58,579 nt of DNA, filler included, from Dugesia japonica (GCA_001938525.1; 5 parts of 5 records of this genome joined end to end with filler, not necessarily neighbours in it); one strand, 5' to 3'; shown: positions 2,691-50,591, counted from the first letter of the whole stretch. The notes: generated by a model from the letters alone, not told the origin. A program made the numbers and translations.

Positions 2691-4554
2691 ATGTTTTTAT
2701 TTTGTATTTCAATTTTATTTATTGCTGGTTACTATTTTATAAATTTGAATTTGAATTGGAAGTGTTATTGTTAGCAATAATGATATTTTAATATTTTATA
2801 TTTTTATCAATGTAATTTTATTATTATTTTAGATTTTTCAGTGTAAATGGTTTATAAAATTTTTAACTATTTATATTATAAGTTTATGAAAACTAATTAA
2901 AATTCAAAATTATACTGTAAAAATCGATTATTTAAATTAACGTGTAAAATTTTTAGAATTACAATTATTGCAAGAATAAATTTTGGACTTGATCATTGAA
3001 TTTTTCACTATTGTATTCTTCAGTAAAATCATATCAGGAATATGATATCAAATTAAAAGTCATGTTCATTTTTACTGAGAAAATGTTAGAGAAAAAATTT
3101 TTTCGCAACCCCACTTTTCTTGCACTATGGTATATAAACCCTATATGAAATATATTACGTTTGTAATTCCAAGTGTAATGATTCCAAATTTATGAGCATA
3201 AGACCATTTTATTTTGAGAAATTTATTAGGTATTTTTAGAAAAGCGTAAATTTCTTAATATTTCAAAATTTTATATCAGTAAGATTTACTTTTTTTTAAC
3301 CATTTTTTAACGGTATTCATATAATTCATTTGTATCTAATTTTATTTAAACGTGTTTCCCTTTTTATATGATTTTAATATTATGCCTTTCAAGATTTTCT
3401 TTAATAATGTTTTTTTTCAATTTATGGATGCATATTTGATTTCCGATGTGACTCATTTTATCTGTTAATATTTTAAATTAACAATCATTATTTGGGCCAA
3501 TAAGTTCTTCGATATTTTCTTTATCACAATTGACCTTGTGTTTTTGCAAACTTATATTTTAATTCTATACCGCATTTGTCGCATATAAAATTATCTCTAC
3601 TGGCCAATTTATGATTGACATTTTTTTCGAGTGAGATATATGACTAGACTTCGACGATTTGCTAAAATTGTCACTGCGTTTTCACGAGGGCATCTATGTG
3701 TTGTAATCCGTGTAGGTTAGCGGTGAAAAGTTTATTAAAGTAGGCTAAATGTCAAAAGATATTTCACGAATAGAAAAATCAATATAATATATCAAATAAT
3801 CAGTAGTAAATTGCTTCGTAAAGAGAATTTCATATGTGAGGATGAAATTTGTATTAGGAGGAGAGGGCTGTTTTGTACTTTTTAAGCAAGGTTTAAATAG
3901 TAAATTTTAGTAATTTTGTTAATGCAAAAATCATGATTTTAGTAATAAAATTACGTTTTTTCGTAAATCTATGGAACTTCTTTGCAGTTTATGAAAAAAG
4001 TGAAAAATGATACTGCTTTCAGTAATAAATGTCTAGTGATTGACTTCTTTTGACCCGTTCAGTATGGTACCGAAGTTTTACAATTACTAATAATTTTAAA
4101 TTGGTATTATTTATTGGTCTTTTATTTGATAAAATATATTTTAGAATGTAACCAGTGAAAAAATTGTTGTAGAAGTAAATTATTTTCATTATTAATTTTC
4201 AATTTAAATTTTCCTAGGCAATTTCTCTTTTCTCGGAGAAATTGATTGTTGTGATGAGTACTCTACCAACACAAAAGTCTTATGAAACACAGGTGAATTG
4301 TTTGAATTAAAATTTTATTATTTTTAAGCCTATATTTAATAATAATTTTAATAATCGTTTGTAAATTGTAATTGCTTGTAAATTTATAATTCTTAATTGA
4401 TAATTTTTTTTAAGTTTAATTGCGTATTTCTTAATAGTTCAAATAAATGTTAAAAGTTAAAATAAACGCTACAATTTTTTTAAGTTAATTTAAATATTTT
4501 TATTAAAATTTTTTATTTTTACGTAATATGTGCAGATTTTATGGTTTCAATGTA

Positions 4555-4805
4555 TTTATGAAATATTATCATTATATATAACTATTATCCTTATATATTA
4601 TCTCGAGAAAAATACATTTTTCAATAGTAGTCCTTTAGACAATGTATAGGTAATTTTTTATTCTCAGTCGAATGGTAACAAAATATCATTATATTATTAT
4701 ATATAACTATTGTCATTATATATTATCTCGTAAAGGAAGCATTTTTTAAATAGTAATCATTTAGACAGTGTATAGGTAACTTTCTATTCTGAGTTGAATC
4801 GTATA
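4555..4805. repeat. Two diverged tandem copies of a ~120-bp unit
   Basis: tatataactatt...tattatctcg...tttagaca.tgtataggtaa.ttt.tattct occurs at ~4575-4670 and ~4700-4795. Confidence 0.6.
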
Positions 4806-5457
4806 AAATTCATCATATTAATAAACCAAATCAAAATTATACTGAATTATAGCGTTAATATTGCTCGAGAAGTAGCTATATTTTAATAAATTAATTAAAT
4901 TTATTGGGGTTTTACAGGGTTTAAATGTGATTGTTTAGAGTTTTAAAGGAATACGAGAAATTTGTCAGAAATTTACTAGAAATTTAGATAGATAGTAGCG
5001 CACTGGAACATCCATATGCTGACGTAATAATGTATGTGAATTCGAAAATTATTTGTGGATACTATATATTTTTAGGAATCTTATTATGCAATGCTGTATG
5101 TTTTCCGGAAATTATTAAGTAATAATGTATATTTTGTCACTTTTTTGTCAAATCACTTGTTTTAATAAATTATTACCTAATAAGGTATGTGTTTTAGATA
5201 AACTGGATGTGTTCCATATTGCTTATGTCTTGGTTTTGAGATAAGTGTGCTTTATTTCTATTAAAATTGTATAATTATAATTTTTGGCTTTTTATTTAGT
5301 AATTTAATTACAGGTTTTTTAGTCCAATAACAACTTTTTACATTTCATTATTTTCTTATAATTATAAATGTTCTTCCGTTGATGTACATTTTAAAGTTAT
5401 TTTTAATGTTTAATGCATTGCTAATAGTTGCTAAACATAAATCTACTTGTTCCATTT

Positions 5458-5976
5458 CTAACATTTGTTCCGAATCATTTTCAATGTTATTGTTGGATTT
5501 TCCGCTAATATTTGTATAATTTTATTTAATATTCTTTCATTTCGTTTTTCTTGAACTACCACTCCTTTTCCCTCCATCAAAACATTACTATCTTTTTGAA
5601 ATTTGTTAAAATAATTTTTTAGCTGAACTTTCATTAATTTCAACAATGCTTGCTGATTCTTTATAAACAACTTTATTTATAAACAATTCTTCATAAACAA
5701 CTGCAGTATTCCCGTGACAAATTGAATTATTTTCAGAAAATTTAAACAAATATGATTTTCTACCGCATTTCCATGAGAATTTAACCGATTACGTAAAACC
5801 TGTATGAGAAAGGGAACACTCATGTAATTAATTACCACATGTTAAGTAAAAAATATCGTCCCAACAAAGTAAATTGGAAAAAAATTGAACAGTCACCTTA
5901 TATGCCATAATAAAAAGTCCCCTCTAAATGCTCAGGGAATAGTTAATCCTCTTATACAATCCTGGGGATTACTGTA
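5458..5976 (-). mobile_element. Probable Tc1/pogo-type DNA transposon remnant
   Basis: Minus-strand terminus TA-CAGTAATCCCC at 5976, and a downstream HTH-like peptide IIQILAENPTITLKMIR (5458-5670). Confidence 0.35.
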
Positions 5977-6339
5977 CCTGTACACCACTATCTCTCTGCT
6001 TACATTTACAAATCTTATCAATTTTAGACATACAGTTATTAAAAAATAAAAAGTTGTTAATGAAATGTAAAAGTTGTTAATGAAATGTAAAAGGTTGTTA
6101 TTGGGGTAAAAAAACTTGTATTTTAGTAATATTTGTTATAAGAAAATAAATATGCAGAATTTAAACCAATAGAAATGGATTAAAATAATTAATAATGTAC
6201 ATTAATTCTATTTAACATATATTTATAGAGTTATGCATTAATATAAATGAAAATTTCAAAAATATATATAAAAATTGCAACAAATATATACGAAAATTTC
6301 AATAATATATATAAAATGTTAAAACATATAAATTAGGAA

Positions 6340-8620
6340 TATACAAAATGTAGCTAGTAGACAAAAAAAGTGGTAATGTTGGACTTGTCTTAAAAAATGA
6401 AATATGAATCAAGTTTTCGTTCGTCGCATTAGAGGTTTATGTCAACAGGTTAGATGTAAACAGTGTTGAAATGGTGGACATAGTTCACAGGAGTACTACG
6501 CCAATTTGAAAAGGAAAAGAACAACTGAGAAATTTGTGACTACTAAAAGGACAGGGAACCGATATATACAAATATATGTGATTGCAGATGCAGAGGTTAC
6601 TACAAACGATAGATATCAAGAAGTATATGAAAGTGATTTCGGATGGCAGTACCCAAAAGACATGCTCCACCAGTAGAGGAGTTGGTTGGAGTTATACATT
6701 GTTAAATGAATTCATTGATTATACTTAAGAGGTTGGAAAGTGATATGATATTGGGAAAGGTACAGAAAAAGTATACAAGTTCTTTAAAAGAGGAAATTTC
6801 GGGTATAATAGTAAAATAGAATGGATTTGAACAATTGAAGCAGGAAAGAAAAAAATTATTTCTGACCACAGTATTACGGTATCAAGTCAGGAGCTCAAAT
6901 TAACGTTATGAGTTTGAGTTGCTTTAGTAAATTACGAGATCTACATTTAGAAATGAGTGATGAAATATTGCGTTGTGAAATAATAGTACACTTGAAATTG
7001 ATGGGAAAGTTAGAACCGGAGTGATAATTGGTGAAGTTTGCAAAGAGATTACTTTCTTAGTTGCTGAAAGAGTGACACCAGATCTGATAGGTGATGCAGA
7101 GAATTTTTAGATACCAGCTTATGCAAAAGGTCGATAGAAAACGGATGAAAAAGTCGAAAATTACATTTGTAATATTGAAGCGAAATTTGGATAGTGATTA
7201 ATTAGAGCCTTAAATACTTTGAAGATTAAAGAAGATCAATGGTTATTAAAAATAATTGGAAGTAAAGAAGATGCTTTATTGCCAGAAAAATGGGATGTAG
7301 GATGCACACATGACAAGACACAAAATAATCACAAGTGGTGAACCAATCAATTAAAAACCTTACAGGCAGCCAATTAATTTAGAATCTAAAATTGAAGAAG
7401 CTAACCAAATACTTTTTGAAAATAATATTATCCTGAAATGCAACTCTCCATAGAATACGCTACTGATTTGTGTTTGGAAAAAGAAAAAGAAGGACATAAA
7501 AATATGTTTGGATTTTGGACAATTGAATGGAGTAACAAAAAAACAAGCCTTTCCGATGCCTAATGTCGATGAAATGTTGGACAAGTTAGATGGAGCCAAA
7601 TATTTCAGTTCAATAGATTTGTGAAATGCATACTATCAAGTAGAGCTCGAAAAAGAATCTCAAGAAAAAATGGCGTTTTCAACAAAGCACGGACAATATT
7701 GTTTTAATAGAATGCCATTTGGCATTGCAGCGGCACCGGGGACATTTCAAGAGATGATGACAAAAGTGGAAGTCGGAATCAAGAGGGCCTTGGTTTATCT
7801 TGATGACATCCTGATATTTACGAACAATAAAGATCAACACTATGAAGTAAATGAAAAATTATTGACGGAAATAATGAAGGCTCGTCCAAAACTAATTCCA
7901 GAAAAATGTCAGTTTCTTCAAAGCGAAATCAGATTTCTTGGACACATAATTAGAAGAGAGGGTGTCAGAACTGATCTGTCAAAAATAGAAGTAATAAGAA
8001 CATTTGGCAAACCTAATTGTGGGAAAAAGATACGAAGTTTCTTAGGAATATGTAATTATTACAGAAAGTTTGTAGAAAGTTTAAGAAAGTCAAAGATCTT
8101 AGAGTAATTGTCTAGTAGACCAAGCAACAAGAAATTAGAATGGACAGGTGAAATAAACTATACTTGCATAAATTGCAAGATAGACCAAGTGGTACGGTAT
8201 CGTTTCAAGGAAATAAACATAAATGTCTATTAGATACAGTGGGTAGAATTAACGTTATAAGTTTGAGTTTTTTTTAATAAATTTCGAGAAGTACATTCAG
8301 AAATGATTGATGAAAGATTGCGGTGTGCAAACGATAGTAAACTTAAATTGTTGGGAAAGTTAGAACTGGAGTAACAATTGATGAAGTTTGCAAAGATGTT
8401 TCTTTCTTAGTTGCAGAAAGAGTGATACCAGATCTGATTAGAAGAAAACTTGGGTTTTTACGGAAAGTAGACGATAAAACTGACGATATAGTCGAAAATG
8501 AAATTTGTAATACTGAAGCAAAATTTGGGAGAAAAATAAAAAAGAAAAGCGACTGAAAATACTCTAAAGATTAAAGACAATGAACAGTTTTTGAAAAGAA
8601 ATTGAAAATAAAGGATGGTT
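6340..8620 (+). mobile_element. Degenerate Ty3/Gypsy LTR retrotransposon (gag knuckle, protease, RT), followed by a second protease-region fragment
   Basis: FNRMPFGIAAAPGTFQ, VYLDDILIF, KCQF..FLGH and RSFLGICNYYRKF (7670-8107). Protease-region sequence is repeated at ~8170-8620. Many stops. Confidence 0.92.
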
Positions 8621-10276: not shown

Positions 10277-10885
10277 ACTTGTATTTGATTCATTTGTTTT
10301 TAATATCCGTAAATTGGGGTCTCGCATCTCTCAAAAATGTTGAAGTCAATTGTGTACAACAACAATTCGTTATCAAGAATGGTTGACAACTACTTGTGAA
10401 AAGCCCTGCTAATTATGGTTGAAATCCCAACATTATGTATAATTTTTGTATGAAAAATAAATGTATTTCTACGTAATTATTGTTTTGTATTTACGTATTT
10501 GTATGTATAATTTAATAACTGTTATTTTTATGTTAACTTTATAATTATATTTTACAATTGCAATTATTGCGAGAATAATTATTGGACATAACCATTGATC
10601 GTTTTATAGAATTCATTTCATTTTGGTTTTTTTATTTATATTGAATAACAATTCCAATTGTTGTCCGAATTGTTATGCAATATCAATAAAAAAAACTAAA
10701 ATTTTGATCAAAGCTTTTATATTAAATGAATTTTATAATTATAATTTATATAATTATAATGATAATTTGAGAATTTATTTATTGTTACTAACATAATTTT
10801 TTATCGAAGTTAACTAATTTTTAATAAAGTTCCTTTTTTAAATTAATTTATTATTAATTAATGATGTAATAATTTTGTAAAAAGT

Positions 10886-10922: not shown

Positions 10923-13389
10923 TTATCAATAAAAAACAAAAAATTTTGATCGAAGATTTTATTTTATTTTAAATGAATTATGTAATAATTTATTTAATTT
11001 CATAATTAATTTTTATACTTTTTTACATTAATAATAAGTTATAATATTTAAATTATGATACTTATAGCTATTGATGCAAATAATAACTTATGTTATATTT
11101 TATAATTCCAATAATTTTTATAATAATATTGATAATATATCTAGTTTTTTTATTTCTTTTCATATTAATAATACTTTTTACTTATATTTTTTAATGATAA
11201 TATCAATTTTATCCTANATTACCTTTACTATCACTGTTAATTTGATATATTATTATAATAATAAAAATGAAACTGTTTATAAAATATCTAATTTTAATGA
11301 TAATAACCACTAATTTGGTGAAACTGTTAAATGATGCTGGTAATATTTTAAATAATAAACAAAAAAAAATAAATAAATAATATTTTTTAGAATTTTAATA
11401 ATATTTTTTTTAATAGTGATAATTTTCAATTGTTATTCTAATAATAATANNNNNNNNNNNNNNNNNNNNNNNNNNNNNNNNNNNNNNNNNNNNNNNNNNT
11501 AATAATAATACAATTCCCTTTTTAAATTAATTTATTTAATTTGTTAATTAACTTTAAAATAATAATTAATACACAATTTTAAACTGTTGAATACATTTTA
11601 TTAATTATAATTTTTAAAAACATTGGTTATATTTAGAATATATTTTTTAATATTTTGATATTTTTTTATATTTTCATGATAACATTTATTTTACACATAG
11701 TATTTAACAACTGCCAAGCTGAATCTTGGCTATGCTGCAAATCTGTGTCTAGTTCACCCTTGGCAAGCAAAAAGGACAAAGTATTAATTTTGTACGATAA
11801 CACGTGAACCGATGAACTGATGGTTCAGTGCGCTAGCTTCCCCTAACTTATATTATTAAATTTTATTTTTTTAAATTAAAAAAAATATATTTTCTGTTTT
11901 TATTTGAATAAAAGTAATGTAGTTTATGAAGATTATAATTGAAATTTTATAAATTGAAAAAAGTTTTAAAACAATTCAATTTAATTAAAATTTGATTAAA
12001 ATTATCCAATAAAGTTTTAATGAAATACGTAAAACTTTTCTAATATCGTTTAAATCTATCAAAAAGTTATATTCCTGAAAAGTAATATATCGTCGAAAAT
12101 TCGAATATCTATAAAACAACAATTGAATTTTATCGAACCTATTATTTCAATGAAATCTCAAATGTGATCAATGGTTAAGTTCAACAATTATTTACGCAAT
12201 AATTGTAATTGGATAAGTAATTATTTTAAATATCCAATATTTTTTTATACACACATTACACATTAATTACCATGCATTCTGATTAGTGCATACTTAAGCA
12301 CTAAAAAATTTAGACCTGATGAAGCGATACAATGCAGTACTATCTAAATACTTGNNNNNNNNNNNNNNNNNNNNNNNNNNNNNNNNNNNNNNNNNNNNNN
12401 NNNNNNNNNNNNNNNNNNNNNNNNNNNNNNNNNNNNNNNNNNNNAAGTTTGGTTCTAAACATTTAATAAATTTTGTCCTAACATGTTTCATAACATCTTG
12501 TAAGGATACTGAAGACATACAGAAGCCAATTTTACTCACAGTCACAATAAATGAAATATTGGGAATAGATTTTTTGATTTCCAGTAAGATTGTGTTAAAT
12601 GTTTTTTTTATTTTTATTTTTATTATTATTATTATTTATCATGAACTATTCTTTACATAACCTTTCAATTTAAATTTTTATAATTTTTTATTAGACAGAG
12701 TAATGAATAAAATTCAAATATTGATTAGAATTTGATGTCTATCACTGTAAAAATACTATAATTAGATACTTTCTATTTTATTTCCAAAGCAATTTTTTAA
12801 AAAAATTAAAATATTGTGTGTTGAATCAAAGTGGTTAATTTTGTGAACAAGTTATTATAGGTTATATTAAAACAATGTTCGTTTTTAAATTTTAAATATT
12901 TCAAAGTAAAATTGTGTTCAATTAGTTGAATAGATAAGCGTAANNNNNNNNNNNNNNNNNNNNNNNNNNNNNNNNNNNNNNNNNNNNNNNNNNTATTTAT
13001 CATGAACTATTCTTTACATAACCTTTCAATTTAAATTTTTATAATTTTTTATTAGACAGAGTAATGATTAAAATTCAAATATTGATTAGAATTTGATGTC
13101 TATCACTGTAAAAATACTATAATTAGATACTTTCTTTTTTATTTCCAAAGCAATTTTTTAAAAAAATTAAAATATTTTGTGTTGAATCAAAGTGGTTAAT
13201 TTTGTGAACAAGTTATTATAGGCTATATTAAAACAATGTTCGTTTTTAAATTTTAAATATTTCAAAGTAAAATTGTGCTCAATTAGTTGAATAGATAAGC
13301 GTAACTTTAAATCTAAGTTTTATAAAATAATTTCAGATTATTATCGAATGCACAAAANGTAAAATTTATTTCTTCATTGAAACTCCTAG

Positions 13390-15090: not shown

Positions 15091-16379
15091 TATAAAAAGG
15101 GTGGCGATGTTTATTGAGTTTTTAAATAATAAATTAATTTCCAGAATTTTTTAAAAAAAATTCGCATCGATAATTTAATTTCATTAAATTAAAAGGTTCG
15201 ATCAAAATATGGTTTTATTTATTATATTTTATAATTTCTTGCTAGTTGAAATACGATCAATTGTTAAGTCTAACAATTATTCTCTGAATAATAATATAAA
15301 TACTGGTTTGAAATTTTTTTTATAAACATTGATTATTACCTTTAAACTAATCAATAGTACCAAAACGAAGTTATCAATGAATTTTAGTCGGATTTGAAAT
15401 CTGAAGAATTAGTAAATTTCTGTTGTTTATTTCATTTTTTGTGAAAAAATAGGAGTTAGAACAAATTTAAAAAATTATTTATAAGAATAGAGCTGAACAC
15501 AAAATTTGATTTGTTAAATATCAAATGCAAGTAGTAAATACAATAAATTGTGAATCTCTTTTTAATTAGTTGTGAAACGATCTTGAATATGTTTATTAGA
15601 GTTTCATTCAGTAAAACAAAATGTTTACTTTATTATTTAAGGAAGAACTGAGGAAACTCTTGAGGAAACTCCGTTTTTTCCGTTTAATCCTTTTCAAAAA
15701 ATACTAAAACCAGAACAAAAACGAATATTAAAATATTTATTTGAACAAATATCTAAAAATATTTTCTTTCCGTGGCTTTGATAACTGAATCAGCTTATTT
15801 TCTAGCAAATATATCTAATTTTACTGATCAGGACAGTACCTTGCTTTTATACTGCACATGAATCAAATCTTTCACGGCTTATATCTTTTGGTGGCTGTTT
15901 TAGTAACACTTCATTCTTCTGTCAATTTCCTCGGTGACTTTCCTTTCGTCAAAAATTTTGAAAAAATCTCTTATTTCTGGTTTCCTGTTAATTTTGATTT
16001 CAAATTTTAAATTGAAACTAAATAGTTCATGCCTTAGGAAATGTTTAACTTTTATAGAGTGTATTGAAATCATTATAACCTATTAAAATTCATCCTTAAA
16101 AGTATTTAGTATATTTTTATTTGAAAATCTAATTAAATGTATCAATTACAATTATTGCGAGAATAATTGTTGGAAGTAAGCATTGATCGTTTTACAGAAT
16201 TCATTAAAATAAAAGCTTTGATCAAAATTTGTTTTTTTTTTGGTTTTTTTAGATCAGAAAAAAAGATCAGAAAAGACCCTAATAAGAAAAATCAAAAAGA
16301 AAATCAATCGGTGCAACTAGGACCCTACAAAGAAAAAGCGTACCACCTTCCAGAGGGGTATGGTAGGGATCCTAAAATC

Positions 16380-16610
16380 CAACCAATAGGCGACCAGGAA
16401 ATAAAAATAAAACAAAGAATAAAAACTCACCTGGCTCTCTAAAAATAGTTGCCAATCATGGCACTGAAATTCTTAGAAAATTTCAGAAAATTGGTGCTAG
16501 CAACAATAAAATTGGAGAAACACCAGTCTAAAAATACTGGCAAATCTAAAACCCAGTAGTGGTGTACACAAAATCCTATAAAAGGACCCCCAGTTTTACA
16601 GAAAAAACAC
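16380..16610 (+). promoter_or_regulatory. Putative RNA polymerase II promoter (4 CCAAT boxes and a TATA box)
   Basis: CCAAT at 16383 and 16452, ATTGG at 16490 and 16511, TATAAAAG at 16577-16584, and a CACTC initiator-like sequence ~30 nt downstream. Confidence 0.5.
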
Positions 16611-18270
16611 ACTCAAAAAACAACGAAATTCTCATTTACCAAGTTGTGAAACTACGTTCAAACAAGCTACTTTTGCTAGGAAAAGAAACTGTTACGACAA
16701 AACTAGTTACAGAGGTCTCAGTATAAATTTATTAGAAATCAGTGGTAAGGTTCAACGTAAAATATTCATTTGATCAACACTTACATTTCTAGAAAAGAGA
16801 GATAGAAACCGAAGCTCCGCACGTTGCCAAATTAAACTAACCTCAATCCAATTGGGCTCTATACAAATCCTCCAACTCATTGCAGAACTCCCTCATTCAG
16901 TTAATTCTAGTTGTTATTTCCGAATTTTAGGATCATATTTTTCAAGTAATTATTTTTATTAGTTTTGTTTTATGTAAAACGTTATATTTTGAAAATAAAA
17001 TATATATATATATATATATCTATGTGTTATAAAAATAATGAATTATATTTTCATCGATTTGATTTTAATAAAATAATGCTTCTATTTTGATTGAAAGTTA
17101 GAACCTGTTAACCACAACCATATTAGAATAATAGTTATTAAACTAAACTAAGTATAAATAAACGAACCGATAACATTTTTTGGGGTTATTTTTAGACCAT
17201 CGAGTCTTATGCTTTATAATGCCGTTATTAAAATTATAAATGAAGATGCACAGCTAGTATAGAACTAATCGGAAATTTATATCCCAAAAATAACAACATT
17301 ACAACGCACAATAATATTTTTTTTTGCCAACTTATTAATTCTGATTGTCGAACTGAGTAATTATCCATTGAAATTCACGAATCATCAATTATGAAATGAA
17401 TGAACAAATACAGGGCAAATTTATTAAATTCCATAACATTGAGATGAAAAACATATCCATATCCAATCAAATTATAAGTTAGCTCCCATATATAAATTTT
17501 GTGCACGATCCCAATCTCTAATGTTATGCGTTTGGGGTACCATATTAATTCATATATTTGATAATTATTGCACACGTGGATAGAATTGGAATTTTAAGGA
17601 AAACTGGCTATCGAGGAAAATCAATAATTCTGACAACATTAAGTAGTAACTAGGAAAGTGTAGGATTCTCCAAAATCGCCATTGCTACATCGATAAGAAT
17701 TATGATTCAATTATGTCACAAACAACTCTAACATACTTGCATGTCGAGTTTGTATATAACAAAAAGTTAAGCACACACCAACGCAAGATTTTACTAACCT
17801 GATTCAGTCGGTATAATTGTGACCTTGAGAGTAACCAAGGCAATTTAAATTTTGCGGTAAATTCAATGCGCCTAAAATTTTCTTTTGGGATGTAAATCCC
17901 TAAGATTGAATCAAGTAAAACTCACAGATCGTTTTCTCATCAATTAGGTCCAATTCATATGTGACTGGATTCCACCGGTCACTAACAAACCAAGTTCCTT
18001 TTAAACTTACTACATAAATAATAATAATAATATCGGTGATATTAATAAATTGTAGGGATAATAATCAGCGCGGTAATAAATAATAATAGTAATCATGGTA
18101 GTAATAACGATGATATCCACCAACACCACTCCTACTAACAACGATAGTAATAATGCTAATAATAATCATCATATGGTTAATGAACAATACCTACCACAAA
18201 GATAATGATAAAATGTTGGTTGACCACGATAAATCTAAGCATTAGGAACATAATAATAATATTAATTCAG

Positions 18271-18537
18271 TATAATGATGACTTGTTCATCGATTCACCA
18301 TGTCGTCCCATGCTTACGATTTTGTAATTTTGCAGTAACGATTTCGGTCCCGCAATGACGGCTAGATTGAGGAATATGTTAAGATGGATCGCGAAACAAC
18401 GACAAATAGCTAGGAGGAAACAGTTGATTGCCCACCTTCTGACAAATGGGGTGGTGGAACATCCAGATGAAACTGATTAAGCATGTTTTGTTGAGATGTT
18501 CCCACTAAACTATCCGGTAGATTTGGATGCCGATTGA
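18271..18537 (+). pseudogene. Orphan cassette ORF A (88 codons, two internal TAA)
   Basis: GC-richer island after attcag. Reads YNDDLFIDSPCRPMLTIL*FCSNDFGPAMTARLRNMLRWIAKQRQIARRKQLIAHLL..ETD*ACFVEMFPLNYPVDLDAD*. Confidence 0.4.
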
Positions 18538-18645
18538 TTACACTTCTTAACAAAACATTTTCCATTGATTATGATAAATAGAATACTTGTCTTAATATCT
18601 TTTGTTCTTTATTTATAATCGCTAATTTTCTATATTGTTAAGTTA

Positions 18646-18990
18646 ATGGAATATAAGTGGGAGATTTTACAGGATCGTTATACCGGAGAAATCGTCGTCA
18701 AACAATATCACAACCCATATGACCGCAACGCGGGTGATTCCGTTGATTTTTCTGTGCTAACGCCTGAAGAGGCAGAACAGGAACGAAAACAGGCGGCCAT
18801 CGCACGTCAGGCATATTATGATTGGAATGGTCTCGACCGGTCACGCGAAGTGATGCACCGCGTCATGACGGTTGACCCAATAACCAATCACGTCTACACA
18901 CAATGGCGGGAAGGGCCATCTTTGATTCCAATTACCCTCGGACAATTGTCTCAATGCACTCATTTCAGCATTGAGAGAGGAGATAACTAG
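18646..18990 (+). CDS. Orphan cassette ORF B, 114 aa hypothetical protein
   Basis: Intact GC-richer ORF. Branch-like gctaat and acceptor AG at 18641-18642; AATAAA at 19044 followed by a GT-rich tract. Paralogous to ORF C. Confidence 0.65.
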   Translation: MEYKWEILQDRYTGEIVVKQYHNPYDRNAGDSVDFSVLTPEEAEQERKQAAIARQAYYDWNGLDRSREVMHRVMTVDPITNHVYTQWREGPSLIPITLGQLSQCTHFSIERGDN

Positions 18991-19169
18991 AAAGACCCTC
19001 ATTTCTTTGGCATGTGTGTCTCTTTTGTATTGAAAGAAAATCCAATAAATTCTATGTTTTGTTAGTGTTTTCGTTAAGATCCTTGAATTGATTGTATAAT
19101 TTATTTTTTTTGTTTTACTCATTTCTGTTAGCAGCTAATGAAACGTAATTCTCTTGTAGTTTTACGATA

Positions 19170-19586
19170 ATGGAACACATTTGGAACGTGACCATCGACG
19201 TACGGACCGGATTATCAACATTTTGAAAATTCCGGAATCCCCATAATCGTGATGCTGGGGTATTGATCGATAATTCCAATATATCCTCCGAATTGGCCGA
19301 GGAGTATCGTAGTTGGGACGCAGAAGAGCGGGAAGCTTATTACCGATGGCGTGGTCCCATGCAAGACCGCCCATATTATTCTCCGTCTCCTCGCACTGAT
19401 TTTACTTCGCCTCTCTTGCCACGAATTGAACGGGTGTGGACAGAGAGTCCTACGGTGTTCGGGTTAGCCACCGCTCAGCTGCCCCTTTATGAACACCTAT
19501 CCTTTTTCATTCAAAGTAACTTATGGAATGTGCGGGACTCCTTAAGTCAAGTCAATGATGAAAATACGGCACAAGAGAACTCTTGA
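19170..19586 (+). pseudogene. Orphan cassette ORF C, paralogue of ORF B (one stop, one frameshift)
   Basis: MEHIWNVTIDVRTGLSTF*KFRNPHNRDAG/IDNSNISSELAEEYRSWDAEEREAYYRWRG aligns with ORF B. Acceptor ctcttgtag ends at 19159. Confidence 0.65.
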
Positions 19587-19725
19587 TAATTGTAGTGTGT
19601 GTAATATTCGAATTATATTTCATGTTCCTTTCTGATATTGAATTTTGATTAGTATTCTTATTATATCTAATACGTTCTTATTAATATCAATTCATTAAGT
19701 ACAAGTTATATTACTCTTTTTATAG

Positions 19726-20060
19726 TGCATTCATCACTAAACCGTACACCCGCTCCGACTAAAAAAATCTGAGAAGATAGCGAGGACATCGAGATGTCCT
19801 GGAGCCTTTACCGATTGGCCAAGCGACGGTGGGAAGCCGACGTGGCTACCGCAGATGCCAAGGTAAAGCGATATAAAATCAAATGCTCCGCTGTCCGAGA
19901 GGAATTAAGACTTGCGCGAGAACAAGAGCGCGCATGGAAAGCGCAAGTTGAATCCTTTGCCGAGATTATCCGGTCCAGCCATGACCGAGAAAATAAACTG
20001 GTTAAGAAAATCCTCTTATTGAAGGAAAAATCATACGTGGAGTGCCCTTATGATCGATAA
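19726..20060 (+). CDS. Orphan cassette ORF D, basic coiled-coil-like protein
   Basis: Acceptor ctctttttatag|TG at 19725/19726. The frame reads HSSLNRTPAPTKKI*EDSEDIE into MSWSLYRL (ATG 19794); charged helical pattern. AATAAA at 20111. Confidence 0.55.
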
Positions 20061-20231
20061 GGGTACGCAGACCAAAATTCCTTCACGCAATTAATCATGT
20101 AGTTAGTACAAATAAATGTTATTATCCGTNTAATCTCTCTTATCTTTACTTCTAAGTTTGTTAATAATCTGAGAATTAATAATCAGTGTATTATATGTTT
20201 TACAACTCAATTAATTGATTCTCTTTTTCAG

Positions 20232-20614
20232 TGCCTAGGATACACTTTCCTAATAGCTTAAAACGTTGCCATCAATTCCCACGCCGACTCCTCATCGAGC
20301 GACACCTGAAAAAGAAGGCGGATAAAGCCTTGTTGAGACATCTCAAGCAACGAGATCGTTTAATAAAGAAATTAGATTTAGTAATAAAGAAACAAGCTTA
20401 CTTGGCCGCACAAACTAAAGCCCTGGAGGTAGAGAACAAACTTTTGCTGCAACGCAAGGTGGATTTTCTGAAGCAGTACATCGCTGACTTATTACATCAA
20501 TTAGGAAATCCGAATACCACACAATGGGACGATGATGACGACATTGCTGCTTTCAACTTTGTCATCACCTCCCCAGATCAGTGGTTAGACCCTGACGCCT
20601 TGAACCTAATCTAG
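20232..20614 (+). CDS. Orphan cassette ORF E, 127 aa coiled-coil-like protein with an acidic tail and no in-frame ATG
   Basis: Acceptor ctctttttcag|TG CCT AGG. Open for 127 codons with no Met. AATAAA at 20627. Confidence 0.6.
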
Positions 20615-21121
20615 ATGTTGATTATTAATAAATGTTTAATTAATAGAAATGATTTAATTCTCTTAATAATATTAAATGTTTTAATTAATAGAAATGGTTT
20701 AATTCTCTCAAATATTACTAGGGAAAATATAGAACCCGAATAAAAGGTTTATTGGTGAGCACTTTCCATCAAGAGAAAAGTCAACCGCAATAAACTGAAA
20801 ACATAACCATAGGGGCAGTAGGGTAAATTCTTGAAAGGATTCTCCTGAGGGCTGTTTTTCCCCGGCCACTTTTCCTAACTCAGGTAGAACCCCAACAAAT
20901 GTATAAATATTAAAATATTAAATTATAAATATTTTTGAATTTCAAAGGCAAAAGTTATTTTAAATTCATTGTTTTATTGAAATATTGACATGGTTTCATT
21001 TAAATTTAAAATTTATTTTCTAAAAGTTAACTTTACCATTGATCTGTATATTAAACAAATATTTTGAAAAACAAACATTTTCAATTGCAAAGATCAAAAC
21101 GATGTTCTTCTTTTTAAATAG

Positions 21122-21930: not shown

Positions 21931-22386
21931 TTTTAGTCAAAATCTTCGTTTAAAATACGACACTACTTTCTTGCCATTTTAATACGAATCAAAGTTTTTA
22001 TTAGTATAATTTATTACATTTTTAAAAATAGTTTTCTCTGGATGAATGGTTTATAGTTTTCGCTTTTATTTAAAAATTTATACGAAGTCAATGATCAATT
22101 TTAATTATGATTTCATAAATATTCTTAACATTTAAGAATCGCGATTCGCCTGTGATTTCTCAAACTTTTTTGGAATTTAAATCGTTGCAGCACTGCCAGG
22201 TATGTGATGAAGCTTTCACATATTTCTGAAAAACACTTTACAAGATAATAAGTTTAGCAAGAGTATAGAAAAAATGTTGAAAATAAAATAAAATAATTAT
22301 AGAATCGAAATTTAATATGCCTTGAGCAAAATGATTTTAAAAAGTTGTAGATTTTATTAAATAAAATATACGATTCCCATCTTCAG

Positions 22387-23259
22387 GTAATCGAATGGAA
22401 TGAAACTCATAAAATGATGAAAGTAAAAATTCCTACTGTGGTAAATACGAATGAAGCACAACATTGTACCCAAACTGGGTATCTTTCTAGACCAACACAC
22501 CGTAATACATCGTGGGATTCTGCGAAATTTGAAGTTTGTGGTCATAGTTGGATTCATATTGGTGAAAATAATTGGGGAGTCAGTGTGTTGAAGGAAGCTA
22601 TTTTCGGTTCATCTGTACTGGATGGGACTGTCTATTTATCTCTGTAAATACTAATGACATTTTGCTATAATAATATTATTGATGTGTTATTAGCCTGCGA
22701 TCGCCTAATAGTCCTGATGCCACGGCTGACAAGAAACACATTCCTCATGTTTTCAATTATTCAATTTTTCCTTATGATTCATCGTTAACAAATAATAGAT
22801 TTGGCACAATTTCTCGTCTTGCCATTCAGTATAATTGGCTGTGCGCTTTGAATACGAATCTATCTGACTGTTTCTCGACGCATATTCATCAATCATCTTT
22901 ACACAATATCAAACTATTTCCAATTTCAATTGTCGAGCCTAACAATGGAGAACTATCAATCGATTGGGTTAAACCAGTAAATTAATATTTATATAATAAG
23001 TATTGTTTGAATATTTGGATTTTAGACGTGTGATAATCCTCGCCAATTCCTATTGCGACTACATGAGATTTCCGGAGGAAGGTATGTTGTAAAGTTAGCA
23101 AGTTCTGTAGCGATAAAGCACGTCTCTATTACAAATATATTGGAAGAATGTAAAGAGGATACAAATAATGATCGTGGCGATATAAATTTTACCAATAATG
23201 CGATTCGTTTATTTATACTGCCATTCGCACTTATTTCTATCGTTGTTGAATTCACTTAA
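22387..23259 (+). CDS. MAN2C1: Cytosolic alpha-mannosidase 2C1 (GH38), last three exons join(22387..22643,22694..22976,23026..23259)
   Basis: WNETHKMMKVKIP..RPTHRNTSWDSAKFEVCGH..LSL|LRSPNSPDATAD..IDWVKP|..LLRLHEISGG. GT-AG introns of 50 and 49 nt keep the frame. Confidence 0.9.
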
Positions 23260-23394: not shown

Positions 23395-23720
23395 TAAAAA
23401 AAAGATTAAAAAAATTGATCCGATCAAAAATTTTTTGATCCCAAAAATTTGATCCGATCAAAAAAAAAATTTATCCCAAAAATCTGATCTGATCAAAAAA
23501 AAATTTGATCCCAAAAATCTGATCTGATCAAAAAAAAATTTGATCCNNNNNNNNNNNNNNNNNNNNNNNNNNNNNNNNNNNNNNNNNNNNNNNNNNNNNN
23601 NNNNNNNNNNNNNNNNNNNNNNNNNNNNNNNNNNNNNNNNNNNNNNCCCCCCCCCCTCCTGGGCGGGGGGGTCCGCTCAGCGCCATGCATGTTGTGACCG
23701 TGCGCTACTATCCCCCTACT
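23395..23720 (-). mobile_element. Polinton-type terminus with GATC-rich subrepeats, nested against the left arm of the next element
   Basis: The minus strand starts AGTAGGGGGATAGTAGCGCACGG at 23720, followed by a GC hairpin and (gatc.gatcaaaaaaatttgatcc) tandem repeats. Confidence 0.5.
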
Positions 23721-26700
23721 ATTGTTTAAAGGACTTATGTTGTGTGATGGATGGTTTTCGCTTAAAGGGTAGTGGCTCCACGCCACAGTCTTATGAGTTT
23801 TATGATGCGAGTTTTTTGCGAGGTTTAAGGTTTGTAAAGGATTATTGGATTTGAATGGGATATATATTGTTGGAAAGGTAATGTGATGGATAAGGTTTTG
23901 TATGTTGAATGTGCTTTGTTTATTTGTTTAAAGGGCTTTAATTTGATTAGTTGATTTTTGTAAGTAGTGTAAGTGTGTTAAAAACATTTTTCGGGACAGA
24001 GAGAGTGGTATGTATTGAAAGAGAATTAATTATCAGATTTTTTAATAATTATTCGAAATGTTTTTGTTAGGAGCGTATGACGTCATAATCTTTTCATAAT
24101 ATATTAATTAAAAATGCTGTTATTTGCTTAAATTGATGAATTTATTGAAAGTAATGGCATTTTTGAGTATTTTTAACTGGGTAATGAGTGTTTTCATATT
24201 TTTCGAATCGGGGGGTAATTCAAAATTTTATTTTTGCATTGGAAATAAAAATGTTTTTGAGCAGACATTATATTTTGCATGGTATGGGGCAGTCTTAATA
24301 TTTTGTATAAGCAGTCTCTTTATTTAGCATGGTATGGGCAGTCTTGATATTTCGCATGGTATAGTTGTCTCTATATTTTGCATAGAATGGGACAGACTTG
24401 ATATTTTTCAGTTAATGGGTCAGTCTTGATATTTTTGTAAGATATTGAATAGTCTTGATTGAAGCATTATTGATAATTTTTCTTTATATTTTACTTTAGA
24501 TAGGTCAGTTTTGACATTATTGCAGGATATTGGGTAGTCTTGATACTTTTAAGAGATTGAGGCATTATTGATGACTTTTTTTTATATTTTGCTTTAGATG
24601 GGACAGTCTAAAATTTATTGACATGTGATTTTTAGTGTATGTGTTTTGCATTCTCATGGCATCTGCATTTATTAAAAAAAATCATTAAAAATTCAAAATG
24701 TTGAGTTTTAAAAACTTTTTTTGGTTGGAAATTTATTAAAATTCTCAGACGCATGATTTTCAGTGTGTGTGTTGCATTCTTGTGGTATCTGAGTTGCATA
24801 CCTAATTCATTTATTAATAAAAATCCCCAGGCACGTGATTTTCAGTGTATGTGTGTTGCATTCTCATGTCATCCGAGTTGCATACCTATTGCATTTATTA
24901 AAAAAATCAACATGGCGACTATGTAGAGTTTTATTTAGAGTTTATGAGTATATTATTTACATATTAGCCGTGTAATATAAGGTTTACAAGTGTAATAAAT
25001 CTTTTTTGTGTCTATTATTTATAAAGTAATTGTGTATTATAGGTTTTTTGAGTCAATTATTTGCATAGTTACCTTGTATTATTTACATAGCAAACATGAA
25101 ATATAAGGCTTAAGTACATTATTTGTATAGCAAATTTGTATTATTTACATATCATCCATGTTATACTAAAATTATGAGTGTATTATTACAAAGTAACCCT
25201 GTATAATAGAGTTTATGAGTATATTATTTTCATAGTTACCTTGTATTATTTACATAGCAACCCTATATTATAGCTTATATGAGTATATTATATACATTTT
25301 AACCATGTAATATAAGGTCATCATGCACAATGCATGCTCGCGTCATGTTCATGCCAATTTTAGATAACAAATAAGTAATAAGTCTATATAAAAACTTATT
25401 TTTATGATTGTATATGGTTAATGAGTGTATTATTTGCATAATTAATTTGTATTATTTAAATAGCAAGTAATTTTTATTTACATAGTAACCCTGAAATATA
25501 AGGTTTATGAAATATAAGGCTTATGAGGAAATTATATTACAAACAAAACGTGTAATATAAGGTTTATGAAGGTACGTTTTACAAATAAAAAATGTAATAT
25601 ACAGTTTATGAGAATATAATTTACATATAAGTCGTGTAATATAAGGTTTCCAAATGTATTATTTGCTTAAGTACCATGTAATATTTAAATAACAACCGTT
25701 TAATATATGATTTTTGTGTGTTTTATTTACATACTAACCGTGTATTATAGGGTTTATAAGTCTGTTATATACATAGTTACCTTGTATAATTTACATAGCA
25801 ACGATGTATTATAATGTTTATGAGTGTTTTAATACATATTAACCCGGTAATATAATGTTTACGAGTATATTGTTTGCTTAGGTATCATGTAGTATTTATA
25901 TAGCAGCCGTTTAATATATGGTTTTTGTAAGTATTAGTTGCATAGTTAGCTTGTATTATTTACATAGTAACCATTTATTATAAGGCTTATTAGTGTATTA
26001 TTTACATATTAACCGTGTAATATTAGGCTCACGGGTATATTATTTACAAAACAACCTTTTAATATATAGTTCTTGTGTGTATTATTTACATATTAACTCT
26101 GTATTATAGGGTTTATGAGTATATTATTTTCATAATAACTGTGTAATATCTGGTTTATGAATGCATTATTTGCATAGTTGATTTATATTATTTAAATGAG
26201 AAAGGTTTAATATAAGATTTGAGTGTGGAAGATTCTTATATATAACTTATAAGTAATAATTTACCTTGTGTGTTGCGCAAATATCAAATTTAAAAGTAAA
26301 TTAATTTAATAAATTAAATAAATAAAGAGAATTCAAAAAGAAATCATGTATTATTAATTAAACAAAACAAAAAAACCACAATATACATAAAAAACATTAA
26401 GCCTTCCCAACTTGTCCAATAAAAAATTTTTCTGGTGTTGTATTTGAAAAGTCTACCGATAGTTCAATGGAATCGAGATCCACTGGAACATTAGGTAATC
26501 CTTTAATATAATTATCTATATTATCTATAAAGAAATTAGATATCATAGCTATACTATCCTATATCTCATAAGGTTGTATTAGAGATTGAATTACAGATAC
26601 ATCANTTTATATTTCAGTGTGTTCTCTTGATAAGCAAGATTNAATCGTGGGATGATTCAATGCATACGTTTGTAAATCCTTTTCTTTTAAAAAGTTCATA

Positions 26701-29685
26701 GCGTCTTCTTTACCATCAAAACTAAGTAATTTACGTTGAAGATCTTTAAATATAGGTAATTTAATGGGACGACAACCGATAGCAATAATTTCTTCCCAAT
26801 CGACAAGAATATCTTCTTTTCTAAAATAGTTCACTTCACGTTCCAAATCTTGAGCATTAACACCACAGAAATGATGTAGATCAAATTGACGATTTAAGGA
26901 TTTAACCATCATACTATTTTTGTGTTGATGTATCATTCAAAGTGCTGATAGTCTTCGTCAGATCGTTCCTGATGTGCATAAAAATAATTAGCTAGTTCTG
27001 GTACAAGATGTATTATAGTTTTACATTTGTTCATGAATATTTGATATGGAATCGAAAACCTAAAGTTTCGGTTTCTACCAAATGTTACTATTCGTCTAGC
27101 TGTAATATTATCTAAATAGATGTTATAATATATATAAAAAAAAAGTAATAATATTTACTTTCTTGAGAATTTTGTGAAGCCATTTTAAAATTATAAGAAA
27201 TAATAATGAAATTCAATATATGTATTCAAAATAAAAAAACCACAACGTAATATATTAATTATTTGAAATATATATATCTAAATTTAAATTGATATTTTTT
27301 GTACTTGAATTGTATAAGGTTTGCCTTTGCGTTGCTAATTTTCTTAAGTTTTCAATCAAATTTTATAAATCTGAAGTAATGTTATTCAGATATCCTTAAA
27401 AATTCAAATTTTAGAGACCAAGCATCACTATCTTTCCGGTTGAGAACACTTTTACACATATAGGGTCATATTTTTACAAGTCATAGAGCTGGAAATAACT
27501 TTGGTTTAAACCAACAGTTGACTATTCTTGATAATTTTTACAAATTTATTGAAACTCTCATATTTAAAAAAATTGCTAATAACTGTAATTGTAAATTTTT
27601 TACATTATAGGGTTCAAATCATGGGGTTCCAATAGTTTCTTACAACTCCTTATTTTACAGTTTCCTGATCTGAGGCCAATAATTGTAAAACTATCACTTT
27701 TGACTTTAAATTGACATGACTTGTCTGTAAGAAAGATCATTTTCTTTGTTACTACCTACAGCACTTCATTGCTGTAATTAATATTGGTTATCTTAATTAA
27801 TGAAGTAAGAGTAAACATTGGGTTTTTTATGATATTAATTTAATGTATTCGTTAAAACAAATATATCAAATGTAATAAATTAACTAAAACTAAGATAATC
27901 AAATGATAATCAAATTATTCTATGTAAAGAATACCTCATAGGTGTTATATTGCACAGTTTCTTTGAAACAAATACATATTAACTAATCAAATAATACACT
28001 CATACACCATAAGTTAGAAGGTTGCTATGTAAATAATATACTCATAAACCCTATTATACAGGGTTAATTTAATAATGATAATACAATAATGATCCTTATA
28101 ATACATATTATAATCCTTATAATCCTATATTACAATTTTACTATGTAAAAAGTACCTTCATAAACCTTATATTACACGTTTGTTATGTAAAATAATTTCC
28201 TCATAAGCCTTATATTTCATAAACCTTATATTTCAGGGTTACTATGTAAATAATACAAGGTAACTTTGCAAATAAATCATGTTTGCTATTTAAATAATAC
28301 AAATTAATTATGCAAATAATACACTCATTAACCATATACAATCATAAAAATATTTTCGTATAAGTTTTTATATAGACTTATTACTTATTTGTTATCTAAA
28401 ATTGGCATGAACATGACGCGAGCATGCATTGTACATGATGACCTTATATTACATGGTTAAAATGTAACTAATATACTCATAAACCTTACAATTTATTAAT
28501 ACACTCCTTATAATATATGGTTGCTATGCAACTAATGTACTCATAAACCTTATATTTTATGGTTGCTCTGTAAATAATACAAGGTAACTATGCAAATAAT
28601 AGACTCAAAAACCCTATAATACACAGTCACTATGTAAACAATACACACAGAAAAAAGATATTTTTAAAATTCAACATAGCCGTCATTTTGGTTTTTTTAA
28701 AACTCAACATAACCGCCAATTTGAATTTTTATTGATTTTTTTAATAAATGCAATTGATATGCAACTCAGATGCCATGAGAATGCAACACACATACACTGA
28801 AAATCACATACATACAAAAACTTTTGAATATCTCTCCAAATTTTTTTACATTTCCGGCCATAAAATAACAAGACTCTCCTCTTCCCGGTTTAAAAAATAT
28901 GAAAACACAATCCCCATTCACAAATACTCAAAAAATACTCAAAAATACATCAAATACTCAAAAATGCCATTACTTTCAATAAAATCATCAATTTAAGCAA
29001 ATTAAAGCATTTTTAATTAAAATATTATGAACAGATTATGACGTCATACACTCCCAACAGAAAAATTTCAAATAATTATAAAAAAAAATCTGATAATTAA
29101 TTCTCTTTCAATACATTCCACTCTTTAGCCCTTTAAATAAATAAACAAAGCACATTCGACATACAAAACCTTCTCCATCACATTACCTTTCCAACAACAT
29201 ATATCCCATTCAAATCCAATAACCCTCTACAAACATTAAATCTCGCAATAAACACGCCACGATAACTCATACGACTGTGTCGTGGAGCCACTACTCTTTA
29301 AGCGAAAACCATTCATCACACAACATAAGTCCTTTAAACAATGTATAGACCAAAGTTTTGTCCAACAACAAAAAAAATCTTAAAAACTCCAAAATAATTA
29401 TTTCCAAAATCTCCAGCGCCTCTTCGATTCACAAACCATTCTTTCACACACAACCACACAAAAACTCAACTTGACCTACTTTTTTCAAAAGCTCTAAAAA
29501 AAACCAAACACACACAAATTTTAAAATTTAAAAATACACACACACAGCCACAGAATCAAAAAAACCAGATCTGATCAAAAAATAATTTGATCCGATTAAA
29601 AGACTTTTGTTCCTAAAAATCTTAGAAAAAAAACTAACTAAAAAATCACAGCACACTTGTGTCGAAGAGCCACTATCTACCTACT
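23721..29685. mobile_element. Non-autonomous element with kb-long inverted arms (Polinton/foldback-like) around a ~1.7-kb core
   Basis: Collinear reverse-complement matches: 23721-23940/29128-29342, 24020-24200/28955-29122, 24835-24900/28740-28808, 25300-25560/28160-28460. The arms contain many tattatttacatag/taatataaggtttatga subrepeats. Right terminus AGTAGGTAGATAGTGGC (minus strand, 29685). Confidence 0.8.
26397..27183 (-). pseudogene. Orphan ~240-codon gene with a 47-nt intron (27112-27158), disrupted
   Basis: ATG GCT TCA..GAA A|gtaaat..atttag|AT AAT gives MASQNSQENNITARRIVTFGRNRNFRFSIPYQIF... A frameshift near 26940 leads into MIHQHK..EHTEI; further disruptions follow, ending FFIGQVGKA* at 26397. 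Confidence 0.55.
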
Positions 29686-30625
29686 GAAATCAAGTTTCTT
29701 GGACACATAATTAGCAGGGATAGTGTTAGAACTTATCCATCTAAAATAGAAGCTATAAGAACATTTGGGAAAGCTAACTGTGTGACGAAGTTACAAAGTT
29801 TTTTGGGAATTTGTAATTATTACAGGAAGTTTAAAGAAAACTTCGCAAGAAAGTCAAAAATATTGGAGCAGATGTGTAGAGGACCAAGCAACAAGAAATT
29901 AGAATGGACAGATGAAATAAACGATACATTAGAGGGTCTGAAAAAATATCTAATTACGGCATCAATATTGTGTTTTCCGGACATAAACAAAGAATTTATA
30001 TTAGATACAGATGCCAGTTTCGATACAATTAGAGCAGTATTGTCACAGAGAGATAAAGAAGGAAGAGAAAGAGTTGTTGCCTATGGTAAACACTCAATGA
30101 CAAGTTGTGAAAAGGGATACTGCATTACACGAAAGGCGTTATCGGCTGTTTAATATTTCTGCATGCATTTCAGACATTACTTTTTTTTAATTTACTCTTA
30201 GAACATATCACAAAACTCTACCTTTCATGATGACGGCAAAGAAACTAATTACATCGCAATTCCAGACATGGATTAATTATCTGAGCAGTTTAGACGTGGT
30301 TTCGGAATATAGAAAAGCAATTCAACATAGTAATGCAGACATGTTATCTAGACCAAGATGTGAGATATGTGTACAGTCACATGAAGAAGCCAAGAAAGGG
30401 AAGATTAAAAAGAGAATACTGAATATAATCAAAAACAAAAAATAAGATCAGTTAAGCATTTCTAAAGAAGCAGATTTTATCAAGAAAATGAAAATTCCGG
30501 ATGACAAACTACATGAAACAATAGAAGAAATACATAAATCATTATGCAATGAAGGAGATGAATAGGTGTACGATTATATGAGAAACAAATATATTGCAAA
30601 GAATTTGTGGAATCGTCACATGTCA
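29686..30625 (+). mobile_element. Ty3/Gypsy pol fragment (RT end, RNase H, start of integrase)
   Basis: EIKFLGH, SFLGICNYYRKF, FILDTDAS, YCITRKAL and HSNADMLSR. Confidence 0.9.
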
Positions 30626-33486: not shown

Positions 33487-33859
33487 TAATTAATAATTAA
33501 TCAATTATAATTAATAATTGGCTTATTTCCAATAAACAAATCAATCTTTTCCTCAATATTCGACAAATAGAGAAGCTAAAGTTAACTCCAGGATTAGTTA
33601 AGCAAGGGATTAACTCCGTCAACTTGTTTGTACTATTTATCATTAAACAAAAAATGTATATTAGACGTAGCAAAGTCCAAAAGTTCCCCAAAGGCAGTCA
33701 CACTTAACAAATTATGCTCAGACAGATTTTTCTCCTATTATTCACAACAAAGATTAATAGTTTCATCTAATGGAGCATTTGTAACTAAAAAACAGTTTTC
33801 GCAGAGAGAAATATAACAAGAAAGCTAATACCGAGGAAAAATTTACATAGATGAAATTG

Positions 33860-34500
33860 AAATAATCAATTGTAATTAATNNNNNNNNNNNNNNNNNNNN
33901 NNNNTAATCAATTGTAATTAATAAATAATTAATCAATTATAAAACATAATTAATCAATTATAAAACATAATTAATCAATTGTAATTAATAATTAATCAAT
34001 TATAATTAATAATTAATTAATCAATTGTAAAACATAATTAGTCAATTATAATTAATCAATGGTAATTAATAATTAATCAATTATAATAAATATTAATTAA
34101 TCAATTGTAAAACATAATTAGTCAATTGCAAATAATAATTAATCAATTATAATTAATTAATCAATTATAAAACCTAATTAGTCAATTGTAATTAATAAAT
34201 AATCAATTATAATTAATAAATAATTAATCAATTATAAAACATAATTAATAAATAATTAATCAATTGTAAAACATAATTAGTCAATTGTAATTAATAATTA
34301 ATCAATTGTAATTAATAATTAATTAATCAATTGTAATNNNNNNNNNNNNNNNNNNNNNNNNNNNNNNNNNNNNNNNNNNNNNNNNNNNNNNNNNNNNNNN
34401 NNNNNNNNNNNNNNNTAATTAATTAATCAATTGTAATTAATAATTAATTAATCAATTGTAATTAATAATGAATAAATTGTAGCTAAATAATTAATTAATT
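33860..34500. repeat. AT-rich minisatellite (taattaatcaatt[a/g]taa)n
   Basis: Dozens of taattaatcaatt units; lies in the DOP1 intron. Confidence 0.85.
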
Positions 34501-49820: not shown

Positions 49821-49909
49821 TCTTGTAATAAATAAGACTTAGATGAAAAGAAGCGCATGTACAGGTTAATTATTTTATTATTTGTAATTATTAATTTGTA
49901 CTATTAAGA

Positions 49910-50510: not shown

Positions 50511-50591
50511 AAAATAAAAATAAAAAGAGGAATAACATTTTATTTGCGGCCCCACTTTTAAGTGTTTGTGATTAAATTAATTCTTTACGAA

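Follow-up and report, generated by a model that had tools for sequence, protein, structure and literature searches.

A candidate start codon assembled by splicing in a multicopy, probably mobile element of Dugesia japonica

The element and its surroundings

The stretch of Dugesia japonica DNA analysed here, referred to as the window (58,579 nucleotides, filler included; GCA_001938525.1, five parts of five records of this genome joined end to end and not necessarily neighbours in it), is AT-rich, with a GC content of 0.16-0.41 per kb, and filled with repeats that include gypsy-type reverse transcriptase pieces, a PolB-bearing element and tandem arrays. Among these lies a multicopy element of 4,754 bp (16143-20896) with an exact 8-bp direct repeat at both sides, carrying five small orphan ORFs, A to E, whose GC content of 0.43-0.48 is set off against that of the AT-rich spacers between them (105-171 nt, GC 0.19-0.28; Table 1). 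The only exons of an alpha-mannosidase 2C1-like host gene identified in the window lie downstream of the element; residues 1-835 of the closest relative match no exon within the window, so the earlier exons fall outside it and the element probably sits in a long intron of this gene.

Table 1. Features of the element and its neighbourhood, in positions of the window
Feature	Position	Strand	Remarks
Left copy of 8-bp direct repeat, likely target-site duplication	16135..16142		Exact repeat; loose ends before 16143 in all four runs
High-copy left end, 98 bp	16143..16240		9-bp stem at 16148-16170; also occurs alone elsewhere
ATG-free stretch (510-nt), candidate non-coding leader region	16461..16971	+	ATG count compared with shuffles
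TATA-like box, candidate promoter	16575..16585	+	Putative, from sequence only
Candidate leader intron, 48 nt	16745..16792	+	GTAAGG...TTCTAG; best-scoring donor; host introns 50 and 49 nt
Candidate last leader exon, A-ending	16793..16945	+	Suggested by GC step
Donor-like GTAATT	16946..16951	+	Named in the sequence-only reading; rank 16/189
ORF A	18355..18480	+	Own ATG 19 nt past weak acceptor (AG 18334-35); stop particular to this copy
ORF B, 114 aa	18646..18990	+	Own ATG; AATAAA at 19044; paralogue of C
ORF C	19170..19586	+	Own ATG; broken by stop 19224-26 particular to this copy
Exon D	19726..20060	+	AG|TG, 14 codons, TGA 19770-72, ATG 19794, 88 codons; AATAAA at 20111
Exon E	20232..20614	+	AG|TG, then 126 open codons without ATG; AATAAA at 20627
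Right copy of 8-bp direct repeat	20897..20904		Exact repeat; contig joints enter at 20896-20898
Last three exons of host alpha-mannosidase 2C1-like gene	22384..23256	+	Element lies upstream

The left edge of the element, before 16143, is sharp in all four read and contig sets compared with the window. The right limit is marked by several contig joints (20896-20898) but is less sure than the left one, since the listed loose ends include none behind 20896 and coverage continues at high depth into the right flank. An exact flanking 8-mer is also shared by 594 of 184,467 random boundary pairs. The left end itself is a very high-copy repeat of 98 bp with a sharp end and a terminal stem, found alone at 10555-10617, 12113-12211 and 2957-3008, and the fold of the stem is not significant against shuffles (z -0.56). 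Terminal inverted repeats were not detected, there being no inverted match of at least 7 nt to the right end within 15501-17000. Pfam searches of the five ORFs and of the six frames of 16143-18343 revealed no transposase (DDE) family in this copy and no gag, pol or env family, and no HUH Rep gene was found in this copy; an autonomous partner with a transposase could sit elsewhere. LTRs end in TG...CA and are flanked by a short duplication. A solo LTR of a giant gypsy element of the Burro type was considered and rejected: a left end other than TG and a repeat of 8 bp speak against it, although CA is a possible reading of the right end. The element is repeated, probably mobile DNA whose likeness to the named families compared below is partial at most, and a literature search covering mainly open-access papers and a few subscription papers, with Repbase outside its scope, found no description of it.

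Searches for relatives of the ORF products were largely negative. ORFs B and E have no relative of near length in a set of 5.8 billion sequences, exact look-up retrieved 0 of 9, and no relative was found of E or B in the ESM Atlas, of D, B or E among viral contigs, or of D in prokaryote genomes; the sensitive HMMER search was run without D, A and C. Pfam and PHROGs yielded only sub-threshold matches of coiled-coil type, and Rfam a single match (E 0.86). Two candidate relatives were rejected as chance, a bacterial ABC-transporter gene (L001) and a bacterial repeat protein (P0070) whose score was summed over repeats. ORF B gave a poor fold (pLDDT 58.6; best Z 4.3, no viral match at E 0.001). For B, D and E these sets therefore contain no detected homologue that would confirm an N-terminus. 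Within the element, B and C are paralogues (E 5e-13), and A weakly resembles the C-terminal half of E, a score reached by 37 of 5,000 shuffles and with no alignment in BLASTP. ORF D (19794-20057) aligns weakly with a helical ORF at 55179-55580 beside a gypsy-type fragment (E 0.018; 10 of 5,000 shuffles), a likeness which may reflect coiled-coil composition alone. An AATAAA stands behind B, D and E and a variant of it behind A, whereas C has no such signal. Two segments at 17396-17660 and 18010-18260, one of them Asn-rich, may be what is left of further cargo ORFs; they are broken by several stops and have no Pfam match.

Other repeats are scattered over the window. A protein-primed-type DNA polymerase B (PF03175, E 6e-15) and an endonuclease VII/zinc-finger ORF, with stops and gaps, mark 49263-54337 as probably a Maverick/Polinton-like element; a large inverted-repeat, foldback-like structure whose arms hold 42/64-nt tandem arrays spans 23400-29400, and a tandem array of a 21-nt AT-rich unit lies at 33848-34486. 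Five related gypsy-type fragments occur at 7300-8100, 29600-30150, 38400-39200, 45900-46950 and 55200-56900, reverse transcriptase or RNase H being confirmed in three. Two ORFs at 39593-40567 on the minus strand resemble a mariner transposase in two pieces, and the fragments at 592-2330, without a Pfam match, resemble the 3' part of a non-LTR retrotransposon. Direct repeats of 98% identity that flank 50-N gaps (695-1300 and 12633-13293) and 44N-12nt-44N pads are both assembly artefacts.

Exons D and E and the candidate leader

A sequence-only reading of the window had proposed that exons D and E obtain their start codons by splicing, an upstream leader ending in A being joined to acceptors directly followed by TG to give A|UG (the bar marking the junction). 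All three motifs on which it relied were recovered where it had placed them: the donor-like TTTTCAA|GTAATT, with final exon base 16945, the exon D acceptor ctctttttatag|TG CAT (AG at 19724-25, 19725 being its last base) and the exon E acceptor ctctttttcag|TG CCT (AG at 20230-31), the TG being in frame in both exons. ORF E indeed has no in-frame ATG, remaining open for 126 codons after the TG up to a stop at 20612-14; the earliest ATG in any frame lies 292 nt inside the exon, is out of frame and opens 3 codons. The lack of Met is real and yet not odd per se, with P ~0.26 at the Met rate of the other ORFs (4/377), so that it is the missing start, rather than the absence of Met, that matters in ORF E. 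Having no usable ATG, this ORF requires an upstream start. It is the longest open frame in the element, and its make-up looks coding-like: overall GC is 0.43 and the three codon positions have 0.53/0.28/0.48, whereas the flanks have 0.27 and 0.14. The modelled protein is dominated by one long predicted helix (residues 17-91).

The position of the TG was evaluated with a simple acceptor filter made for this analysis and run over both strands of the window. TG directly follows the acceptor at 6 of 68 filter-passing sites, or 4 of 66 without D and E, and E alone in the window continues for at least 60 open codons in the TG phase. Five sites pass within the element, D and E among them, and the acceptors read for A, B and C fail. 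That two strong acceptors are both followed by an in-frame TG, against a background of 4 in 66, counts for start codons split by an intron. The D and E acceptors had been described as near-identical, which applies to about 12 nt, whereas over the wider regions the alignment is at chance level, its score being equalled or exceeded by 84 of 200 shuffles; since no kinship of D and E was detected in protein or flanking DNA either, they represent independent cases rather than a duplication. They differ in what follows. Behind its acceptor E carries the rest of an AUG and 126 codons, and D, also in frame, meets a stop at codon 16 in this copy. The reservation already expressed about D holds, TGA 19770-72 preceding the internal ATG after 14 open codons; this ATG, at 19794 in an A/G-rich context (gagATGt), opens 88 codons. 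The 68 nt from the acceptor to this ATG are coding-like in GC (0.43), with the TGA as sole in-frame stop.

What the upstream exon would look like is suggested by the composition of the left part of the element. No ATG occurs in 16462-16945, as compared with a mean of 4.4 in 2000 dinucleotide shuffles, 0.5% of which had none, the limits of this stretch being set post hoc; two other N-free ATG gaps above 500 nt on the two strands of the window argue against the region being special. GC falls from 0.37 in 16793-16945 to 0.14 over the following 155 nt, and an ATG-free leader ending at this step speaks for the split-start model, as does the local partner of the donor at 16744, with which it forms an intron of host-like size (48 nt). 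No AG lies 18-150 nt downstream of 16945, which would thus be unable to close a short intron, and A also stands at -1 in one of two host donors (A|GTAAAT). Scored with a rough generic matrix, which is our own prior, 16945 ranks a middling 16th of 189 GT sites, which counts against it, and 16744 first. There are 13 further A-ending donor-like sites upstream of E, which argue against 16945 as unique: an exon that ends here in the first base of AUG without an earlier AUG fits, with several candidates besides. The context before A|UG is weak by the Kozak rule (C at -3, T at -4 to -7), a point against the model. Weighing these elements, we put a start of E assembled by splicing as A|UG at somewhat less than an even chance, and regard the use of the donor at 16945 itself as distinctly more doubtful.

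Two other origins of the first codon of E have to be considered at this point. D and E could be terminal exons onto which a short coding exon is spliced in phase 1, so that TG completes a Val, Leu or Met codon, and eight donor-like sites upstream of E with an in-frame phase-1 ATG (e.g. 17477 and 17747) could provide one. We consider this unlikely: it leaves the TG unexplained twice over (background ~6%), the candidate exons lie in AT-rich, poorly covered DNA or within other ORFs, and the upstream intron of the host is phase 0. Moreover, with a phase-1 leader carrying its own ATG, the frame entering at acceptors A, B and C would close after 6, 3 and 2 codons, respectively, and the ORFs found there have an ATG of their own 19, 3 and 10 nt past the acceptor; a shared leader should therefore be non-coding, and such a leader, to start E, would have to end in A, giving AUG, or, weakly, in G, C or U. 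In-frame splicing from the host gene itself was rejected for phase mismatch, its upstream intron being phase 0.

The G-ending variant is the second of these origins. G is the usual donor base at -1, the G-ending 16744 is the top donor of the 189, and the spacers of 105-171 nt with their poly(A) signals resemble trans-spliced operons; E could thus start at GUG through this donor, through a G-ending trans-spliced leader or, unspliced, at GTG 20231-33, with D using ATG 19794. GUG is a weak start, 16744 fits the local 48-nt intron, and no leader-like loose end appears among those listed, though RNA depth was nil. NUG starts supplied by a leader have been reported (PMC9851317, in the available portion of that source), whereas a flatworm-type AUG-ended leader would be read first and stop after 9 codons in E. 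Altogether the GUG start seems to us improbable. An AUG-ended trans-spliced leader fits poorly as a source of the start, being out of frame with both ORFs and reading only 9 codons for E and 4 for D. Joining of A to UG from a non-coding leader remains, in our view, the most economical of the plausible models for ORF E.

Copies of the element and RNA coverage

Reads and contigs were compared with the window at 80% likeness in two contig sets, X7 and X4, and in two of seven raw RNA runs, X9 and X12, of each of which about a quarter was read (1.9 and 1.7 billion letters). Of 24 runs listed in a search with the stretch, 7 contained part of it, and no RNA run was listed among these. X4 was rejected as an RNA run and treated as DNA, for it tracks the depth profile of X7 at ~0.007 in most bins. 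The DNA-like X7 contains a 694-nt piece identical to this copy at depth 14.4, and its summed depth, which is no measure of copy number, amounts to 119-630 over 16624-17890, to 894 and 970 in two spacers and to 3,669-7,186 over B and C. This profile shows many related copies, more alike in the ORFs than between them. A part of ORF D (19882-20062) reaches a summed depth of 91,392, far above the rest of the interior and like the ends of the element. The stop of ORF A (18479) is carried by 24 of 2,695 depth units and that of ORF C (19224) by 16 of 3,169; a one-base length difference near 20044, at the end of D, is likewise particular to this copy (~24 of 352). With the stops of A and C confined to ~1% of depth, this copy is decayed and the frames of the family are open, and the greater depth of ORFs over spacers adds that the ORFs have been kept open in the family.

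Differences to other copies number 1,815, and the 40 of them listed include none at the donor, at either AG|TG, at the stop of D or in 20091-20708, which includes all of E. There is thus a hint of AG|TG being shared between copies, and of E lacking an ATG for some reason other than simple loss in this one. It bears on the reading of E as a frame that lost its ATG in this copy, or that is dead or never translated, with AG|TG sites there by chance, for which the at least three lesions of this copy's own, the lack of expression in X9 and X12 and the lack of homologues in the sets searched can be adduced. Its probability appears low to us, given that the differences listed spare 20091-20708 with no near-unanimous alternative in the first codons of E, and that E is the longest open frame of the element.

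The same differences are less favourable to D. Its TGA at 19770 may be shared by other copies, a hint that counts against extending the split start to this exon. D might then be an unremarkable exon whose first 68 nt are untranslated and whose TG is there by chance, E alone needing the junction; the ATG at 19794 in gagATGt and the absence of the 19770 stop from the 40 listed of 1,815 differences, where the stops of A and C do appear, point in this direction. Nonetheless, these 68 nt are GC-rich (0.43) and coding-like with a single in-frame stop, A to C have their ATG at most 19 nt past the acceptor, and the absence from the 40 listed of 1,815 differences is a hint only; we give this variant the lowest probability among the alternatives. 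The proposal of spliced A|UG starts thus fits the sequence in the case of E, where the exon has no other usable AUG and neither an AUG-ended trans-spliced leader nor the phase-0 host intron suits the frame, and is weaker for D, which has an ATG of its own.

Few bins in X7 have as little coverage as that of the leader (359), and X4 does not cover it at all, which counts against the split-start model; at 80% identity most copies may be without a leader like this one. A further point against the model is that depth in X9 and X12 is 0 over 20063-20605 (E), as it is over ORF C; in X9, both strands of D are covered at 0.6-4.8 and the leader bin at 0.2-0.65. In the RNA runs 97-98% of the matched reads continue into other sequence. 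None of the 15 joints listed, out of 77, starts at 16945 or stems from X9 or X12; a leader-D junction backed by one or two reads would stay below the listing threshold. With little or no expression of the element in these libraries, the junction is neither seen nor excluded by them.

A putative transcription unit and its precedents

From the observed motifs, reading frames, element limits, many copies and decay of this copy, we infer the transcription, splicing, donor choice and translation of the unit as follows. The locus would be one decayed member of a multicopy family of non-autonomous mobile elements, with its cargo organised as one transcription unit. A promoter near the left end would yield an ATG-free leader, probably of two exons around the 48-nt intron and A-ending at 16945, to be spliced to one of several downstream acceptors, each product being polyadenylated at a signal close by. 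Products of A, B and C would each start at an ATG of the ORF itself, 3-19 nt past the acceptor, and E, probably also D in intact copies, would start with UG, the AUG being completed only at the junction.

One non-coding leader, alternative acceptors, several poly(A) sites and many small proteins are features of the adenovirus major late unit and of the accessory genes of complex retroviruses. If the model holds, the element would share this multi-acceptor working; unlike those systems, it is a genomic repeat of 4.7 kb, and neither a viral hallmark gene nor a viral fold was detected in it.

As to the start codon, a split one in a mobile element is already in print. The env gene of the springer subclade of insect endogenous retroviruses is spliced to an AU dinucleotide, AU|G, and according to the accessible part of that report (10.1101/2023.08.03.551782) it is likewise the downstream ORF of a mobile element joined to part of a start codon, protein being made only after the splice. 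There, AU|G was mapped experimentally and concerns the single env of an LTR element. The A|UG proposed here is deduced from sequence and would serve one ORF or two out of five orphans, in an element where no gag, pol or env was found. Flatworm spliced leaders can supply a 3'-terminal AUG, and the start codon thus also comes from splicing to a leader, but as described in the available portion of PMC9851317 the whole AUG is given in trans and in phase 0, which here would yield 4 (D) and 9 (E) codons.

With respect to the class of the element, hAT and P DNA transposons generate duplications of ~8 bp (PMC3706591, available portion); the 8-bp direct repeat is shared, whereas terminal inverted repeats and, in this copy, a transposase were not found here. 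The likeness to Replitrons and Helitrons is loose: these also lack inverted ends and carry a terminal hairpin, with short direct end repeats in Replitrons, whose hosts are algae, plants and protists in the portion of PMC10288648 available; by contrast, no HUH/Rep gene was found here and the hairpin is not above shuffles. Nothing fitting was found for Burro elements in the accessible parts of PMC6431247 and PMC8532177. The same parts describe planarian transposons as normally silenced by piRNAs, which, if this host is similar, could explain the lack of reads.

A split start is plausible here on present sequence grounds. It is tempting to go further and see in the element an undescribed animal class (8-bp duplication, no inverted ends) in which one promoter serves at least five orphan proteins in the manner of a viral late unit, two of them gated by a junction-made AUG so that neither unspliced RNA nor host read-through makes them; taken as a whole, this broader proposal is possible but rather unlikely. 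Since the split-start mechanism has a precedent, what the proposal would add, if true, is a class of elements and a set of proteins that are new, rather than a new principle. It would then show, on a compact scale and in nature, how a selfish element gates translation by splicing, and would point to a family of small cargo proteins, apparently open across many copies, that gene finders would miss for want of a genomic ATG.
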